NCBI GenBank assembly: GCA_000004985.1 | Contig: GG738909.1 | Direction: 5' to 3' (one strand) | DNA from: Naegleria gruberi | Lineage: Eukaryota | Length of the DNA: 64,000 nt | Shown here: one piece after another, positions 4,953 through 17,066 of the stretch | Layout of the letters: each line of letters begins with the position of its first letter | Position numbering within the stretch: the stretch's first letter is position 1 | Position numbers and translations under genes: made by a program | Notes under the pieces: model-generated | The model's database searches: none | Told to the model about the DNA's origin: nothing | What the model saw: the letters and a program-made list of their open reading frames with translations, nothing else

Positions 4953-5089
4953 TCAGATATAAAGTAAAATATCTGATTAATTTTCAAAATTTCCAAAAAT
5001 AGCAAAACGTGACCATCACGTTTATGCTACAGACTTATTATCATTCAAGCATTGCGAGCACGTTTTGTTTTCAATAATTAAAAAATAAG

Positions 5090-7816
5090 ATGCAAATGCT
5101 TCACATTTTGATAATAAGCGTTTTCCTCACGTTGTTGACACCAGCCATATGTCAATTTATTCCACCTGATATTGAAGTCAAACCTATTATTACTGGCCTA
5201 AAGGGACCCTCTTCACTCTTTTACCAACACGACAGTCTCTTCATCCTAGCAACTAATCAACAAATTCTACTCAAGACAGACTTTCAATCAAAGCCAAACA
5301 TTATTCTTGGCATTAACAACACTTTTGGATACAATGGAGATGGAAAACTTGCAAAGGACACCACTTTAAGTAATCCTCACGGTTTACATGTGAATGGCTC
5401 GTTCATTTATATTCCAGATAAATGGAGTCAGCGCTTGAGAATGGTCAACAAGGAAACAATGATTGTTCAAACAATTGCTGGAAATGGAATCTGTGGTTTC
5501 AGTGGTGATGGACAAAAAGTTGGAGTGCCAAATACACAATTGTGTAATCCACAAGGAGTTTTTGTGGAGAAAAATGAGATTTATATTGCAGATACTTTCA
5601 ACAATAGAATTAGAAAGATAGATTCGAATAATTTTCTTTCGACTGTTGTAGGGTCTAGCTCAATTGGTGGGTTTTCAGGGGATGGAGGTCTAGCAACAAA
5701 CGCCAAACTCTTTAGACCTGAATCTGTATTTGTGTATATGAATCAAGGCCAAACTGATATATTGATTGCCGACACTTTTAATAATAGAATCAGATTAGTC
5801 AAGAATGGTATAACCTCAACAATAGCAGGCGGAAATACCCAAGGATACAATGGAGATGGTATTCTTGCTAAAGATGCGTATCTATGTCAACCTAGCTCTG
5901 TATTTGTTACAACAGTTGGTGAAAGTCTTATTGCTGATTATTGTAATCACAAAATTAGAAGAATTTTCACAAATGGAACGATAACTAGTTTACCAATACA
6001 GGTCAGATATCCAAAATCCATTTTTCTTGATCAAACAAATGGCAATCTTTACATCTCTGAATTGGTTGATGGGACAGTTCAACAAGTGACATTTTACTGT
6101 AAAGAAGGATACAAATTGAATGATTTTCTTGTATGTGAACCTGTTTGCCAACAATCATGCAATACGAAAGGTAAATGTTTGGCTCCTGATGTTTGTGAAT
6201 GTCAGGACAGATACTATGGTGAGTTCTGTGAGGAGTTTACATGTTTTGGAATCTCAAAGGATCATCCAATGGTTTGTTCTGGACATGGATCTTGTATTTC
6301 TCCTGATTCATGTGAATGTGAAGTTAATTACTTTAACAGTAACTGCTCAGCAACTTCTTGCTTTGGAAAGAACTCAACCGAGCCATCTGTTTGCAATTCA
6401 CATGGTAAATGCACTTTATTCAACACATGTAAATGTGAATTCAACAAATATGGTGGCAATGAGTGTGAAATTCCTCTATGCAATGGAAAAAACTCTTCAG
6501 ATCCCAATGCATGCTCTGGTAATGGATTCTGTAGCACTGTCGTTTCTCCCGCTTCATGCATTTGCACTCGAGATATGAGTGGAGCATATGTAGGATCTGA
6601 TTGTCAATACCCAACCTGTATTTCAATCCCCTCTTACGAACCGAGAGTTTGCAGTGGAAATGGTCGTTGCTATGGATTTAATTTGTGTGAATGCAAAGAA
6701 GGATACGAAGGACTGTTTTGTGAATCAGTTACATGTGGAACTGGTTGCAAGATAGCTGCTTCAATTCCTGCGAGCGTTGTAGTCGGAGTTTGTGGTGTTA
6801 TTAGTTTGGTTTTGTTTCTGACGAGAACGAAACTGAAAGAATTTGCTAAAAAGCTCACATATACTGAACTTAAAGATATAGAGATAGTACCTTATCAACA
6901 TTTCTACATTGCTACAGAAGATGAAAAATACGAATACAAACTCAAAAGAATATTAGGAAAGGGAGGATTTGGTAAAATTTATGTTTTTGATGAGATTAGT
7001 GATGGGCAAACCATTGAAGTTGCAGTGAAAATCGTTGAGTCAGTTGATATGTCTGTTCTTAATGAGCCTACAACTATGAGTAGGTTACAACATACCCATA
7101 TTGTACCTATTCGTCGTTTTACAATTGTTGGTGATGGAAAGTATACTTGTTTAATTATGCCACTGTATCTCTGTGATTTGAGAAAGTGGTCTCAAAGCTC
7201 ATTGATGACCATTGAACTGATTATTGAAATTGTTAAGCAAACTGCCTTCAATATCTGCACAATATGAATATGGTCCATAGAGATCTGAAACCAGAAAACA
7301 TACTAGTTGAATCTCCAAATCCTTCACAGGATACGATCATTGATATATCCTCATTCCACTTGCGTGTTGGCGATTGGGGATCAGCCAGATTCGAATCTGT
7401 TGAGACAAGCAATGGTTTCACAGCACAGTACTGCTCACCAGAACATTTTCAAGAAGGAATAACTTCCTGCAACAAGAGTGATATTTGGAGTCTTGGATGT
7501 ATTCTCTATCAATTACTCTCATCAGATTACGAATCGAAACTAAATGTAGTGAAACAAAAAACTCAAAGTGATGAAGACGATAAGGAAATTAGGGAAACAG
7601 TAAGGGGAATGACCAAACTGGATGATTCATTCAAGCTTAATTCCATGTGTGATTTAATGCTAAATATGATCAAGTTCAACCCAGAGGAAAGGTAAGTTTG
7701 CTTTGAATCTAATAATCTTAATCATAATGGATAGAATATCTGCTGATGAAATATTGCACAGATTGAGTACCATTAATAATCAGTCAATGGATATAGCTCA
7801 GAATTCTGGCAATTAA
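5090..7816 (+). CDS. Receptor-type Ser/Thr protein kinase with a signal peptide, NHL-like repeats, Cys-rich EGF-like repeats, a TM helix and a kinase domain. Contains a 1-nt frameshift at about 7237-7245 and an intron at 7692-7734.
   Basis: - Repeated xADTFNNRIRxI units (NHL-like), then multiple CxCxxxxxGxxC EGF-like modules.
- TM segment VVGVCGVISLVLFL.
- Kinase motifs GKGGFGKIY, VAVK, HRDLKPENILV, DWG and SPE.
- The frame switches from 2 to 1 at a run of three A at 7239-7241. Restoring one A gives ...EIVKQNCLQYLHNMNMVHRDLKPEN.
- Donor GTAAGT at 7692, acceptor AG at 7733-7734, last exon 7735-7816 (...FNPEERISADEILHRL*). Confidence 0.7.
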
Positions 7817-9193: not shown

Positions 9194-10176
9194 TTAATGT
9201 TTATGATCCAATTCGAATATGTAAAAGTCATAAACTGGTTTGAAACCAAACTTTTCATAAATTCCAATTCCCATTTCAGTTGCTTCTAAAACCATTTTCG
9301 TGTAACCTAATTGTTTGGCCATGTCTATCATTGAAACCATGAGAATGGTTGCAAATCCTTGGTTTCTGTGTCCATCACGAGTTGCCAAATGATTAATAGA
9401 AGCAACATGTTTTCCCATCACTAATTTTCCACAAGCAACTATTTCCACTTGTCCATTCGAAAGTTTTTGCTTAATTCCAACAGTGAAACTTTTCACAGAC
9501 GAATCTGGAGCAACTGTCGAAGTATCATTTCTAATAATTTCCTTCAAATTATCAGAAATTTGTGGAACACCACTAAATGCATCGGATTGACAAGTCCAAA
9601 ACTGAACCATTTCCTCTGGACTTTTCATTTCTACCAATTCGAATGATTTCTTCTCATTTTCACAAATCTTTCGTCCAGAAAATATTGGAATTGACGAGTA
9701 TTCCATATTTTCCACCATCCATCTTCTCTTTTCCTGATAATATTCAGTCAAATCTTGAATTTGTAAAAGCATGACAGTTTGCATTGTCAAGCTAGAAAAG
9801 CATTCTTTCAAATTCATCTTTTCAAGCTAGAAAAGCATTCTTTCAAATTCATCTTTTTGTAAATGTAAGTGGAGCCAAATTTCAATCGTTCTTGAACTTT
9901 TTCACTCCACAGCAATTGGTATTCTTGTAAGAGAGTCAAATTTTCACTTGTGGCCATATTAATCTTGCAATAATAAAACTGTGGAGTGCCATTGAGTCCT
10001 AAATTTGAAATCCTCGTGGCTGTGTCCATCACATCCTTGGTGTATCCACCAAAAACCTCCAGATACTCCAATCCTACCAATTCAAAGTGACTCATCGTGG
10101 CGTGAGAAGTCGTAAACTCTGCAAAACTATCCTGCACCATACTCATGAGTGCATTCTCTCCTTCCAAACTTGCCAT
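9194..10176 (-). pseudogene. GNAT-family N-acetyltransferase whose reading frame is interrupted by a perfect 35-bp tandem duplication. Either a pseudogene or an assembly artefact.
   Basis: Two adjacent minus-strand ORFs both contain MNLKECFSSL. Removing one 35-bp unit at 9788-9857 fuses them into a single frame of about 315 aa. The C-terminus has the GNAT fold motif RNQGFATILM...LEATEMGIGIYEKFGFK. Confidence 0.5.
9788..9857. repeat. Perfect 2 x 35-bp tandem duplication (caagctagaaaagcattctttcaaattcatctttt) inside the GNAT coding sequence.
   Basis: Read directly: 9788-9822 is identical to 9823-9857. The unit length is not a multiple of 3, so it introduces a premature stop. Confidence 0.9.
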
Positions 10177-11436: not shown

Positions 11437-12189
11437 TTAATTCAACCAAGATTGACAGGTAGTTACATCACCTCTCTTTGCAGTTCCAACAGGTGGGAAT
11501 CTCAACCATTCTCTCATTGACACTTGACTTTTACCTAATGTGGAATCATGCATTGGCATGGTGACAACACCTTGAGAAGCACCAACTCCCCATTCAGGGG
11601 AATACAAATCAAAGATAATATTACGTGAGTGATCGAGATTTTGTTGAGCATCTCTCCAACCTTCTTGGAAAGTTTGACTGGTGACTTTGATTGGTTCAGT
11701 AAACTTGGTATTGTTAGCTCTGTAATAGAATGAATAGTAACCAAATTGTGCAATGGCATCCTTTGGAATTGGATATTGAGTCAATGGATCAACGTTAGTG
11801 GAATTCAAACTGACAACTGTCAACATGTCAGCATAAACTCTAATCAATGGACTGCCAAAGAATCTAGATTTGTTAGTAACAGCACCAACTACTGAATATC
11901 CCTCAAAACTTCCCTTTTCCAATCTGAAATATTTTGGTTGACTGTTGGCATTTGTAAAATCAATTCCAAATCTGGTTTTAAAAAATTGCAAACCTTCATT
12001 CAACTTGGCATTTGTAAAACGTTGAGTATTCAATGGATATTCCATTCTCTTTGGAATCAAATCGAATGGTAAAGCATCATCAAATAATAAACTCAATTCT
12101 GCATCTAAAAGTTTACTTGGATCGCAAGCTGCTGATGTGAAATTTACAATACAGCTTAGCAATAATAATGTTACAAGGAGTTTGTACAT
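11437..12189 (-). CDS. Secreted protein (signal peptide) homologous to the N-terminal domain of the adjacent PAP2/haloperoxidase-like gene.
   Basis: 250-aa ORF with a hydrophobic N-terminus (MYKLLVTLLLLSCIVNFTSA). The block LQFFKTRFGIDFT...GYSVVGA..RFFGSPLIRVYADMLTVVSL aligns with FYRNQYGLDIS...GYPTLAG...VYDDAFAIMLTQ of the 12687 gene. Confidence 0.5.
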   Translation of the reverse strand: MYKLLVTLLLLSCIVNFTSAACDPSKLLDAELSLLFDDALPFDLIPKRMEYPLNTQRFTNAKLNEGLQFFKTRFGIDFTNANSQPKYFRLEKGSFEGYSVVGAVTNKSRFFGSPLIRVYADMLTVVSLNSTNVDPLTQYPIPKDAIAQFGYYSFYYRANNTKFTEPIKVTSQTFQEGWRDAQQNLDHSRNIIFDLYSPEWGVGASQGVVTMPMHDSTLGKSQVSMREWLRFPPVGTAKRGDVTTCQSWLN

Positions 12190-12686
12190 GATGTGGAGTG
12201 TGTGTTTGGTTGTTTTTTTTTGGATTTTGTTTATTGAAATGAAGATTGATTGGCGTTTTGTTGAAATTGAGTGACTTGTGGCAGGCTGAATTGATTGAGG
12301 ATCTAATTATACGACAGGAAGGCGCTGTTCTCTGTTACATTATGAAATCGCCCACTATTTATTATTGAACATGTTTGTAAATCTAAGAGTTTTGCTTCCT
12401 TTTTAAAAAACATGTCACTTGCCAATAAAATATAAAAAGTAATGTTTTAATAAACAAAGAAGGAAACAGCCATGTAAGTAAACTAAATAACCTGCTCCTA
12501 TTTAAAATACCGACCTGAAATGTTGATGTGTTCAAGAACGCCAGCTGTCACTTCAACTCATTTCACACACAACCTGCCTCAATAACCAGAGAACTCGATT
12601 CTTTAAATACCTACACCAAACAACTCCAAATACCTTTCACAACACAAAAAAACAAAACAACTTGTATAATAATTAAACTGTATAAT

Positions 12687-14624
12687 ATGTCAGCAAAACA
12701 ACTGACACGATTCCTCGTGTTTACAATGCTGCTGATGATTTCAACACTCATCATGATGGTAAGCTCCTACTCACCTACCACAGAAACTGATCCACAAGAA
12801 TTCGATGCTCAATTCCACTTGTCATACTTGGCAGATGGCATCCAAGCAGGTGACATTGCTCCAATCACTCGTTATCCAGATGCCTATGAAAAAGCCACTT
12901 CTTTCTATAGAAATCAATATGGTTTAGATATCTCTGATAATGGTTCTCGTCTCCCACCTGGCACTCAATTTTTCACATCAGTCGGTGATAAATATGTCGT
13001 TGAATATGCAAAGGTTCGTGGTTATCCAACTTTGGCTGGTTCTCAAGATTTGGGAGTGTATGATGATGCCTTTGCTATCATGCTCACTCAACCACTTGTT
13101 GTTCATGGTGCTTATGGAGGTAAGAATGGTACTTGGGTTGATAGTGGCTCAGTATTGCCATTTGGGTTTTATACCTATTTTTGGAAGGTTAATGGAACGA
13201 CTGCCTTTCCAAGAATTACTTGGTCTAGTCCAATGCCAATGAGAATTTCAGCTGATGGTTCATTGGTTGTCGATTGTGAATTGACTTCAAATATTTGGGG
13301 TAAAGGAATGGCTAGAGGTTTGAATTTGATTAGAATTAATCCTGCCACTGGTCAATATTATGTCTCTGTTGTCAGTTCTCATACTTTCCCAGTTAGTCAA
13401 ACTGATATTAGTCCAAAATGTGCTGCCATTACCACTGAAAAGGATATTTTCAATGAAGATTTCATTATCAAGTGGAATAATGTCTTGTTGGCAACTGTCA
13501 GAGATTTCAAAGTTGCTCCACCTGTTGCTTCCAGAGCTATGGCTATTGTTCACTCTGCTGTTGATGATGCTTTGGGTTTCTGTAGAAGATTGAGATATAC
13601 TGGTAGACCATGTGATTATGCCACCATTGCTACAACTGTTTCCTATGCTGCTCATAGAGTTCTTGGTCAATTGTTCCCAAATAATATTGATTGTTATACT
13701 GCTGCTTTAAAGAGCGCTTTGAAATGTAATGGTTGTCAAGAATATGAAAGCTCAGAATTAACTAGAATTGGTAAGGTTGCAATCTTGGCTGCCGATAGAG
13801 TTTTGAGATCGAGAGATAATGATGGTAGTTCTGATTTTGTTGATTATCAATTCAGAGATGGTCCAATGGATTATCAAAGTCATGCTCCAAACTATGTCAG
13901 AATTCCATTGTTGCCTCAATGGTCAGCTGTTGAACCATTTGGAATTCAAGATGTTGAAAGTTTCAGACAAGGTCCTCCACCACAAATTGGAACTCCTGCA
14001 TTCGAAACTGCCTATGATGAAGTTTTCTTGTACGGTAGAAATGATTCGAGCGTTAGAACCTTCGATCAAAGAAGAATTTCTTGGTTCTGGGATGATGGTG
14101 CAGGTACTGCCACTCCACCAGGTCACTGGAATGTCATCCTTCAATCAATTATTAGAAGTCAAGGAATTACTGACACTTTCAAGATTTCAGCCATGTTCAA
14201 ACTCTTGGGTTGTTCAGTTGCTGATGCTGGTATCGTCTCTTGGGATCACAAATATTTCTATAATGCCCTTCGTCCAGTAACTGCTGTCAATAACAGAAAT
14301 AGAAATCTCAATTGGTTCCCTCTCTTGGCCACTCCACCATTCCCAGAATATACAAGTGGACACTCAACATTCTCTGGAGCTGCTGCCAGAATTTTGAGTT
14401 TATTGTTGGGTAGTGATGATATAACCTTTGATGTGACAAGTGATGGTTACAAGTATCACACCAGAACTTTTAACAGATTGTCAGATGCTGCTAAGGAAGC
14501 TGGTAAATCAAGAATTTATGGTGGTATTCATTTTGAATATGCCAATCAAGCTGGTTGGAATTCTGGTGTTGCTGTTGCCAATGCTGTTTACAATCAATTG
14601 TGTAGAAATGGAAATTGTCTTTAA
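12687..14624 (+). CDS. Secreted PAP2-superfamily (acid phosphatase / vanadium-dependent haloperoxidase-like) protein with an extra N-terminal domain.
   Basis: - The ATG at 12687 is followed by a signal/anchor sequence (FLVFTMLLMISTLIMMVSS).
- The C-terminal region carries the PAP2/haloperoxidase signature: KYFYNALRP, PEYTSGHSTFSGAAARIL, SRIYGGIHFEYAN.
- The track's 12528 start is a GTG. Confidence 0.6.
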   Translation: MSAKQLTRFLVFTMLLMISTLIMMVSSYSPTTETDPQEFDAQFHLSYLADGIQAGDIAPITRYPDAYEKATSFYRNQYGLDISDNGSRLPPGTQFFTSVGDKYVVEYAKVRGYPTLAGSQDLGVYDDAFAIMLTQPLVVHGAYGGKNGTWVDSGSVLPFGFYTYFWKVNGTTAFPRITWSSPMPMRISADGSLVVDCELTSNIWGKGMARGLNLIRINPATGQYYVSVVSSHTFPVSQTDISPKCAAITTEKDIFNEDFIIKWNNVLLATVRDFKVAPPVASRAMAIVHSAVDDALGFCRRLRYTGRPCDYATIATTVSYAAHRVLGQLFPNNIDCYTAALKSALKCNGCQEYESSELTRIGKVAILAADRVLRSRDNDGSSDFVDYQFRDGPMDYQSHAPNYVRIPLLPQWSAVEPFGIQDVESFRQGPPPQIGTPAFETAYDEVFLYGRNDSSVRTFDQRRISWFWDDGAGTATPPGHWNVILQSIIRSQGITDTFKISAMFKLLGCSVADAGIVSWDHKYFYNALRPVTAVNNRNRNLNWFPLLATPPFPEYTSGHSTFSGAAARILSLLLGSDDITFDVTSDGYKYHTRTFNRLSDAAKEAGKSRIYGGIHFEYANQAGWNSGVAVANAVYNQLCRNGNCL

Positions 14625-15952: not shown

Positions 15953-17066
15953 ATGCGCACGCAATATCTCATCTTGTTTTCAATCCTCTCACTTTTCCTT
16001 GCCTTGTTCTTCTATCAACAAGTACAAGAATCAAAAAAAACAACATCATCACTCGATTTTAAACAAGGAATGTCTTCAGCAACAACTTCTGGAAGAGGAT
16101 TAAAAGCCATTGTAGTAGGATCAACAGGTTTGGTCGGAAAGAACGTTGTCAGAGTCTTGTCTCAACAAAATCCTCAAGAATATGCCAAGATTGTGGCCAT
16201 TTCGAGAAGAAAGGACAATCCATTCAATTATGAAACAAGTGTTCCTATTGAACATATTACATTGGATAGTTTGGATAATTTGGATCAAATTTCTGATGTT
16301 TTTAATGAAGTAGAGTAAGTTTTTAGACGAATCATCATGAAATTAATATTTAAATAATCAATTTATTATAATTAATCAATTGATTGCTATTATCATGTAA
16401 TATTCGGAAATTATATTTATTTGGAATATAAACAGTGAAGCATATTGTTGCTTGGGAACAACTATCAAAAGAGTTGGAAATGATAAGCAAAAGTTTAGAC
16501 ACGTTGATTTTGATTATCCAGATTCATTTGCTAATTTGGTTTACAAATCATTCACCAATGCTGCTCAGAACACTTCCGAGAATTTGAAACAATTCTTCCT
16601 TGTCACTTCTACAGGAGCTGATAGCAGTTCAATGTTTTTCTACAATCAAGTGAAGGGAGATATTGAAAAGTCGGTTGCTCAAAAGCAATTGGATTATCAA
16701 CAATTTACTCAAGGAAAATCACTCAATCAATCTTCTTACTGTCACATTATCAAACCAGGTTTATTAATTGGAGAACGTGAAAATGATGAAAGATTTGGAG
16801 AAAAGGTTGCTCAAAATTTGAATAATTTATTATCGTGGGCACTTCCAAGAAGTGTGAGTGGAATTAAGGGAGAGGAAGTTGCCAAAGCAATGCTTCAAAT
16901 TGCTGCCACAACAAGACAACAAAAATTGGATCTTTTGAAGGAAAGAGATTCTCATTCATCTGTTGGAGGAGTGGATCAAGCAACTCGTTTCACAAATCGA
17001 ATCTTTGCTCATGGAAATGCAAATCTCAAAGATTATTCAGATGAGTATGATCTTACTCGTAAATAA
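15953..17066 (+). CDS. HTATIP2/TIP30-like NAD(P)-binding oxidoreductase; join(15953..16314, 16436..17066).
   Basis: - N-terminal TM anchor, then the Rossmann motif VVGSTGLVGKNVV.
- Intron: GTAAGT at 16315, acceptor AG at 16434-16435 (121 nt), phase 2.
- The junction gives ...FNEVDEAYCCLGTTIKRVG.
- Exon 2 resembles TIP30: CCLGTT..., LVTSTGADSSSMFFYNQVKGDIE, IIKPGLLIGERE. Confidence 0.65.

Follow-up and report, generated by a model that had tools for sequence, protein, structure and literature searches.

A barrel–vanadium haloperoxidase-type fusion gene and its divergent free barrel paralogue form a candidate two-gene module in Naegleria-type amoebae

We examined a head-to-head gene pair in a stretch of 64,000 nucleotides (the window) that lies on a 250-kb scaffold of Naegleria gruberi, a heterolobosean amoeba (contig GG738909.1). 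One gene (12687..14624, plus strand; single exon, 645 amino acids plus stop; D2VY20, XP_002670991) encodes a protein in which an N-terminal barrel domain is fused to a catalytic domain of the vanadium haloperoxidase (VHPO) type. Its neighbour (11437..12189, minus strand; single exon, 250 amino acids plus stop; D2VY19, XP_002671032, NAEGRDRAFT_73941) encodes a free paralogue of that barrel. On balance, we favour the reading that Naegleria-type amoebae have a conserved two-gene module, consisting of a bacterial-type VHPO-barrel fusion and a free barrel partner, and that the locus is one of its copies. New here are the fusion to a barrel, the free paralogue inherited with it and the barrel family, which had no annotation; the enzyme core adds a member to a known family.

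A preliminary description of this DNA, made from the letters alone, had pointed to these two genes, and both are present in the list of open reading frames (ORFs) at the coordinates and on the strands that it gave. Between them lies a divergent intergenic region of 497 bp (12190..12686, no strand), presumed to act as a bidirectional promoter. Both proteins are 100% identical to NCBI/UniProt entries and are known to the databases under generic names. D2VY19, whose database copy P0001 is a 100% match to the free barrel protein, is called 'predicted protein', and D2VY20 (P0008; 100% identity to the fusion protein across 97% of the length) is called 'PAP2_haloperoxidase domain-containing protein'.

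A predicted two-bundle catalytic domain of haloperoxidase type

The catalytic domain of the fusion protein (residues 259-645; 13461..14621, plus strand) was delimited with Foldseek, phmmer, Pfam and the predicted local distance difference test (pLDDT) of an AlphaFold model, in which it forms an all-helical two-bundle fold. The model of the full fusion protein has a pLDDT of 84.7 and a predicted template modelling score (pTM) of 0.72, and its pLDDT is >90 through most of residues 259-645. In a phmmer search against PDB the best match was 4CIT, the monomeric vanadium iodoperoxidase (VIPO) of Zobellia galactanivorans (E 1.2e-31). The same enzyme, Zg-VIPO1 (4USZ/4CIT), headed the Foldseek results (E 7e-18, TM 0.77, ~415 residues), followed by NapH3 (8CXL), XhnO11 (9L8X), NapH1 (3W36) and the vanadium chloroperoxidase (VCPO). 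Zg-VIPO1, NapH1, NapH3 and XhnO11 all have the two-helical-bundle fold of the Naegleria enzyme, which as modelled is a structurally full two-bundle VHPO. Identity to the Zobellia VIPO is ~25% across the whole domain.

Three motifs on the plus strand make up the predicted active site. Motif 1, WDHKYFYNALRP (14241-14276), reads W519-D-H-K522-x6-R529-P530 and holds the vanadate/phosphate-binding Lys and Arg. Motif 2, FPEYTSGHS (14340-14366), reads F552-PEYT-S557-G558-H559-S, and motif 3, SRIYGGIHFEYA (14508-14543), reads S608-R609-IYGGI-H615-FEY-A619, with an Arg and the vanadate-binding (or phospho-accepting) His. In an alignment of 114 sequences (8 Naegleria-type proteins and 106 bacterial homologues), the seven residues K522, R529, S557, G558, H559, R609 and H615 are intact in 8/8 Naegleria-type proteins and near-invariant in the bacterial homologues. 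K522, R529 and P530 are invariant columns, and W519 is nearly invariant family-wide. All seven vanadate-site residues align residue for residue with the Zobellia VIPO, and W519 and F552 are identical to the aligned residues of that enzyme. In VCPO and VIPO structures, the Trp before the motif-1 Lys and the Phe before the motif-2 Ser line the halide pocket.

The preliminary description had read the long protein as a PAP2-superfamily enzyme of VHPO type. This assignment is borne out by the C-terminal signatures, by the PDB match to 4CIT and by a Pfam PAP2 match above threshold (34.2 bits against a cut-off of 27.2, residues 508-638). The PAP2 match marks superfamily membership only, VHPOs included, and the precomputed Pfam annotation adds VCPO_2nd to it.

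The same match is also what would be seen if the fusion protein were a secreted or lysosomal PAP2-type acid phosphatase, with barrels that bind phosphorylated substrates or serve nutrition, for example by helping an amoeba that feeds on bacteria to scavenge phosphate. VHPOs and PAP2 acid phosphatases have active-site residues in common (PMC4859513), here the K..RP, SGH and SR..H groups, and because of this sequence alone cannot prove haloperoxidase chemistry. In addition, apo-VCPO is able to form a phospho-intermediate (PDB 3BB0), and some sources label the bacterial relatives as phospholipid phosphatases. The acid phosphatases of E. blattae (1D2T) and Salmonella (PhoN, 2A96) have the K..RP / SGH / SR..H scaffold and the C-terminal helical bundle in common with the Naegleria protein. 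However, they consist of a single bundle of ~220 amino acids and match at only E~1e-4 to 1e-3 (in Foldseek, ~225-235 columns at E~1e-4), compared with the two-bundle match to the VHPO fold, and the best sequence match is an experimentally named iodoperoxidase. The complete KxxxxxxRP - PSGH - SRxxxxxHxxxD signature is absent, since the fourth position after the His is Ala and Thr replaces Pro before SGH. The charge-relay Asp of HxxxD is replaced by Ala, Gly or Ser in 8/8 Naegleria-type members; it is Asp in 89 of the 106 bacterial homologues, and the Zobellia VIPO likewise has Ala there. The Trp and Phe beside motifs 1 and 2, shared with the Zobellia enzyme, also argue against a phosphatase. 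We therefore regard the phosphatase alternative, the main rival, as unlikely, and infer from the sequence comparisons that haloperoxidase chemistry is the better assignment.

The domain as modelled also has neither of the forms expected of PAP2 phosphatases, a soluble single-bundle enzyme of ~220 amino acids or a membrane enzyme with six TM segments. Nor does it group with the lipid phosphatases, a possibility that the preliminary description had allowed for: an ordinary PAP2 gene at locus L002 has no similarity to the VHPO domain. That description spoke of metazoan lipid phosphatases, which suggests that it took the heterolobosean amoeba for an animal. This gene (7653-8441 of L002, plus strand, 262 amino acids) lies 1.7 kb from a free barrel gene that has no adjacent fusion gene, and its position there is probably a coincidence.

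Free and fused barrels belong to one family

The free protein begins with a classical signal peptide, read from the sequence (residues 1-20, MYKLLVTLLLLSCIVNFTSA, followed by ACDPS; 12130..12189, minus strand), and all of its orthologues have an equivalent hydrophobic N-terminus. In the AlphaFold2 model (pLDDT 75.9, pTM 0.72) this N-terminus is a helix followed by a low-confidence segment. The mature domain (11440..12129, minus strand) is modelled as two helices and then about 8 long antiparallel strands. Its conserved columns include FFKTRFGID (11959-11985), FGYY (11734-11745) and WGVGASQG (11569-11592), all on the minus strand, and Cys22 and Cys245 are invariant among free-family proteins.

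The fusion protein likewise starts with a hydrophobic segment, a signal peptide or signal anchor (residues 1-27; 12687..12767, plus strand; read from the sequence). The NCBI/UniProt model of D2VY20 (623 amino acids, MMVSSYSP...) begins at Met23 and so lacks the first part of it (residues 1-22, 12687-12752). Hydrophobic N-termini are found in P0011, P0012, P0013, P0015 and P0280, which are orthologues and paralogues of the fusion protein. Because all of these carry the signal, 12687 is the better start, and the annotated start of D2VY20 is, on this comparison, probably 22 codons too short. The barrel domain follows at residues ~36-235 (12792..13391, plus strand), as delimited by hhalign, by a bacterial-only hidden Markov model (HMM) and by the full-length model, where it shows the same helix-plus-8-strand pattern as the free protein. 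An interdomain linker predicted with low confidence (residues 236-258; 13392..13460, plus strand) joins it to the catalytic domain. Residues 236-243 of the linker have a pLDDT below 50, and its Cys245, in an invariant PKC, is conserved across the fused family.

The preliminary description had proposed that the neighbouring gene encodes a secreted homologue of this N-terminal domain alone. By pairwise alignment the evidence is weak (BLASTP: collinear, 23% identity over 256 columns, E 2e-4), and it becomes firm with profiles. When an alignment of 7 free-type proteins was compared with one of the N-terminal ~240 residues of 8 fusion-type proteins, hhalign gave a probability of 97.5% and E 6.3e-12 over 195 aligned columns. 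A barrel HMM built from bacterial-type family members, with no Naegleria sequence in it, matched both kinds of protein independently, with E-values of ~1e-25 for the fused domain and of 1e-10 to 1e-15 for the free proteins. Motifs common to free and fused barrels are FF[KR]xx[FY]G[IL]D, FG[YF]Y, an N-x-[ST] sequon, WGxGxxxG and a terminal Cys. Neither the free protein nor the fusion N-terminal domain had a Pfam match at E<=1, in agreement with the earlier statement that this domain is unrelated to PAP2.

The sequon (NNT or NGT) stands in the same alignment column in both proteins, at residues 159-161 of the free protein (~11707-11715) and 169-171 of the fusion protein (~13191-13199). It is also present in that column in the free-type and fused-type relatives P0122-P0124 and is absent from bacterial-type members, a pattern that fits N-glycosylation in the secretory pathway.

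The two genes are linked in several genomes

The head-to-head arrangement was verified by sequence at five loci, namely the window, L001 of Naegleria lovaniensis (consecutive locus tags C9374_007298/9), L004, L006 and L015. The length class of the spacer, ~440-580 bp, is kept across the genomes of L001, L004, L006 and L015; the spacer sequence is not. The genes that flank the pair in L001 are all without a counterpart in the 64-kb window, and the linkage has therefore outlived the local synteny.

The pair seems to be present three times in N. gruberi. P0002, a free copy, lies on the same scaffold as a fusion gene and has a consecutive accession. Besides the pair in the window there are two further free/fusion combinations, D2VLP7/D2VLP6 on a scaffold of 380 kb and D2V7U6/D2V7U7 on one of 602 kb. 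Their UniProt accessions are consecutive, and judging from the accessions rather than the DNA the members of each would be adjacent. Identities between copies of the free protein and of the catalytic domain run in parallel: 92%/87% for Ng1-Ng2, 73%/73% for Ng1-Ng3 and 85%/85% for N. lovaniensis and L004. Parallel divergence of this kind would be expected of two genes that are duplicated together. The overall correlation of divergence (Pearson r 0.94) is driven by a few close comparisons, and the rank correlation is not significant. One further contig, that of P0009 (L014), is too short for a partner gene to show.

Together, the conserved head-to-head linkage and the co-duplication lend circumstantial support to the earlier suggestion of a two-component secreted system, and on this genomic evidence the two genes probably work as a pair. 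The adjacency might instead be a historical accident without functional meaning, for example an old tandem duplication of the barrel in which one copy captured an incoming VHPO gene, with the free protein acting alone. A free copy occurs apart from any fusion gene in L002 and L003, so that linkage is not obligatory; the N. gruberi fusion paralogue D2W2B5 has no known partner; an alignment of four intergenic regions showed no convincing shared promoter element; and in the bacterial neighbourhoods sampled, barrel and VHPO genes are unlinked and offer no functional hint. All four points favour an accident and weigh against a functional module. The module reading also has against it the active site shared with phosphatases, the full-length model, in which the flexible linker leaves no confident interface between barrel and active site (pTM 0.72), and the literature searched, which contained no paper on these two proteins, on a Naegleria haloperoxidase or on a VHPO with a dirigent-type domain. 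Nevertheless, an accident would have to account for head-to-head linkage at 440-580 bp at five sequenced loci, with different flanking genes in N. gruberi and N. lovaniensis, and for what appear to be three joint duplications of the pair in N. gruberi, in which the divergence of the two genes matches. For these reasons we think it improbable that the adjacency is meaningless, and retain the two-gene module as the preferred reading.

On either side of the pair, at 9194-10176 (minus strand; 207 and 120 amino acids) and 15953-17066 (plus strand; 121 and 204 amino acids), lie two consecutive ORFs on the same strand. Each of these flanking ORF pairs resembles the exons of one intron-containing gene; the barrel and fusion genes are intron-less.

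Two old lineages of the barrel family

The preliminary description had also considered that a domain found both fused and free might reflect a recent fusion or fission. Adjacency and homology are what would be expected if the free gene were a recently split-off or duplicated copy of the N-terminal domain of the enzyme, but the comparisons do not sustain this idea. Free and fused barrels are only ~21-25% identical. In an all-against-all BLAST the fused domain reached 114 bits with P0123 and 72 bits with P0130, a bacterial-type member, compared with 33 bits with its free neighbour, and the free protein scored best against the free-type proteins P0122 (275 bits) and P0124 (120 bits), so that for both copies the scores favour relatives other than the neighbour. 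The family-wide hGxYGGxxG loop is kept in the fused copy and lost in the free Naegleria copies. Based on the scores and the loop, the neighbours are two old lineages of one family. Furthermore, the fusion architecture is already fixed in every Naegleria-type genome sampled, and it is the same at the five sequenced loci, whose genomes have diverged to ~57-60% identity. A recent fission or fusion is thus very improbable. An ancient tandem duplication followed by fast divergence of the free copy is conceivable.

The barrel is found on 0/106 of the bacterial VHPO homologues. We also considered whether barrel and VHPO could have been transferred together from a bacterial operon, and rejected this for the current sample, in which no barrel gene lies within 8 kb of the closest bacterial VHPO genes (L009-L013) and no VHPO gene lies near the bacterial barrel genes. 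Since the bacterial homologues have neither the barrel nor the linkage, the fusion appears, from these sequences, to have arisen in the Naegleria lineage.

Origin of the catalytic core

Only Naegleria-type proteins cover the full length of the fusion protein. The other 106 matches cover its C-terminal ~60% at 35-44% identity or less. All of them are bacterial or metagenomic, and those with names are bacterial (Thermoanaerobaculia, Acidobacteriota, Planctomycetes, Pirellulaceae, Gemmataceae, Pleurocapsa and Kordia). In a neighbour-joining tree the Naegleria-type enzymes form one clade in 200/200 bootstraps and have duplicated since. This clade sits on a long branch near the distant outgroup, an attachment that is probably due to long-branch attraction, and the tree did not place it within the bacterial radiation. 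Both genes have the same GC content at third codon positions (GC3) as the window background, 0.26-0.28 against 0.295+-0.04. The matching GC3, together with the paralogues and orthologues, therefore speaks for an old, fully ameliorated acquisition from bacteria. As far as sequence affinity can tell, the catalytic core was most likely acquired long ago from bacteria, and bacterium to amoeba would be the direction of the transfer.

Fungal and algal enzymes are the VHPOs classically known from eukaryotes. The VCPO of Curvularia inaequalis (1VNC/1IDQ) and the vanadium bromoperoxidases (VBPOs) of Ascophyllum and Corallina have the superfamily and the active-site residues in common with the Naegleria enzyme. 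Nonetheless, the fungal VCPO is far more distant than the Zobellia VIPO (phmmer ~5e-9 against 1e-31), and the algal VBPOs match in Foldseek only at E~1e-3 to 1e-2. The Naegleria enzyme is therefore not derived from the known eukaryotic VHPO lineages. The preliminary description had named the gene as a candidate for horizontal transfer, with bacterial, fungal or algal enzymes in view; of this the bacterial affinity holds, with matches at 35-44% identity or less, and any transfer is old. Unlike the bacterial VHPOs, the Naegleria enzyme has a eukaryotic host, a eukaryotic signal peptide and many extra cysteines. It is also alone in its N-terminal ~200-amino-acid barrel, which is absent from the solved VHPOs as well, and, in contrast to the compared bacterial VHPOs, its gene is paired with a divergent free barrel gene.

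As the closest relatives of the catalytic domain outside Naegleria are all bacterial, the gene might be thought a bacterial contaminant or an assembly artefact. Against this, the gene lies inside the 250-kb N. gruberi scaffold with typical eukaryotic genes on either side, its GC3 equals that of the host, and its fused domain is missing from every one of the bacterial homologues; further scaffolds carry paralogues of it, and orthologues occur in N. lovaniensis and at L004, L006 and L015. Contamination or an artefact was accordingly rejected, its probability being negligible.

Several features of the bacterial homologues were noted in passing. Around the closest bacterial VHPOs, P0017 and P0036 (L011 2498-7840; L013 6233-11922), the gene order JAB/Prok-JAB, ThiF-rhodanese, VHPO, peptidase S10, ThiS-MoaE is conserved, so that a sulfur-carrier/ubiquitin-like gene set stands beside a haloperoxidase-type enzyme. 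At L009 the VHPO gene instead follows a sulfatase and a phosphodiesterase gene. The bacterial homologues of ~534 amino acids (L009-L013) have the catalytic domain at residues ~27-420, and their extra ~115 amino acids are thus C-terminal, not N-terminal. Other homologues carry dockerin, HemolysinCabind, PEP-CTERM or type IX secretion system (T9SS) sorting domains, and many bacterial homologues are therefore also extracellular.

A secreted barrel family without a Pfam model

An exhaustive search with a barrel-family HMM yielded 139 cluster representatives (50% identity) at E<=1e-3, 35 of them at E<=1e-10; an indexed homology search with a 24-sequence barrel profile had returned 9 proteins. Members of the family (alignment A5, P0122-P0259) have a median length of 259 amino acids and nearly all stand alone. 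Their N-termini are mostly signal peptides, some of them of the twin-arginine (Tat) type or with a lipobox, as is typical of bacteria. Family motifs are FFxxx[FY]G[IL]D, hGxYGGxxG, FGxY, WGxGxxxG and (R)xxxTFP, with RNVLTFP at the C-terminus. Bacterial members were confirmed in metagenome-assembled genomes (MAGs) of Armatimonadota (L007 5974-6735) and Solirubrobacteraceae (L008 5846-6619), and a eukaryotic member occurs in the amoebozoan Flabellula. Judged by their sequences, both Naegleria barrels, free and fused, are members of an uncharacterised family of ~250-amino-acid secreted proteins from bacteria and diverse eukaryotes that has neither a Pfam model nor an informative annotation.

A Pfam scan of the 139 members (E<=0.05) found no model for any recurrent part of the family, and the barrel profile had no match among PDB sequences. 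The superfamily compared with the barrel was that of AOC-barrel, dirigent and beta-barrel Diels-Alderase proteins, including Cyc15 (8OF7), Tsn15 (6NNW), the rice JAC1 dirigent domain (7R5Z), PyrI4 (7DVK), AbnU (7DVI) and AtAOC2 (1Z8K). The Pfam Dirigent and AOC-like models did not match the free protein or the N-terminal domain (E<=1), and neither was shared among the 139 members (E<=0.05).

The Flabellula baltica protein P0182 (1178 amino acids) has the barrel fused to a right-handed beta-helix, and another A5 member has a CHRD domain. In the sequences collected, the barrel recurs as a module in secreted multidomain proteins, and its fusion to a VHPO is unique to Naegleria-type sequences.

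At the two bacterial loci, the only ones that a search with a 4-sequence subset of the family brought up, the genes near the barrel gene (radical SAM, methyltransferase and MFS at one, DUF3179 at the other) have nothing informative in common. Upstream of the barrel gene in the Armatimonadota MAG, L007 866-4336 encodes a radical-SAM enzyme with an HMPTM zinc ribbon, a class I methyltransferase and an MFS-like protein, and the ORF directly upstream (5084-5908, 274 amino acids) has no Pfam match.

Proposed function and significance

We propose that the fusion protein may be a secreted or phagosomal halide oxidase. Vanadate would be held at K522, R529, S557-G558-H559, R609 and H615, and hydrogen peroxide would be used to oxidise halide to a species at the level of hypohalous acid. 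A flexible linker of ~20 residues would join the ~200-residue barrel to the VHPO core. The barrels may bind a small hydrophobic molecule or a target surface, and could thereby capture or position what the oxidised halogen attacks. The free paralogue would serve as a second binding subunit or a partner subunit beside the enzyme, and the head-to-head arrangement would secure its co-expression with the enzyme.

Selective VHPOs carry out halide oxidation and substrate halogenation in distinct pockets (PMC12633397), and VHPO selectivity is governed by access structures, a tunnel and a loop (PMC11871015). A binding barrel fits these findings of separate pockets and controlled access (PMC12633397, PMC11871015). 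A bolder version of the proposal, which we put forward as speculation and hold to be quite unlikely, is that the barrel is a new dirigent-like substrate-directing or target-binding module and that a bacterial VHPO and two diverged barrels make up a two-protein secreted or phagosomal halogenating system. If this were true, the pair would either halogenate some unknown metabolite selectively or, in a bacterivorous amoeba, do with vanadium what the myeloperoxidase killing system does, and the barrel family, with its 139 clusters, would be a new class of small-molecule-binding or accessory proteins. On the other hand, should the enzyme prove to be an ordinary phosphatase to which the barrel is attached passively, the locus would be one more domain fusion of the routine, lineage-specific kind.

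VHPOs have value as biocatalysts, and how some of them come to select their substrates is an active question (PMC11871015, PMC12633397). In a VHPO that is fused to a barrel and inherited along with a free paralogue of that barrel, nature would have carried out the experiment of adding a binding module to an enzyme that oxidises halide. Heterolobosean protists would also gain their first described VHPO-type enzyme, with an ancestry in bacteria and not in fungi or algae. Relatives of the pathogen Naegleria fowleri have the pair, and a secreted, non-human enzyme that generates oxidants could matter there for prey killing or host damage. Independently of Naegleria, our comparisons have exposed a sizeable family of secreted proteins that no Pfam model yet describes.

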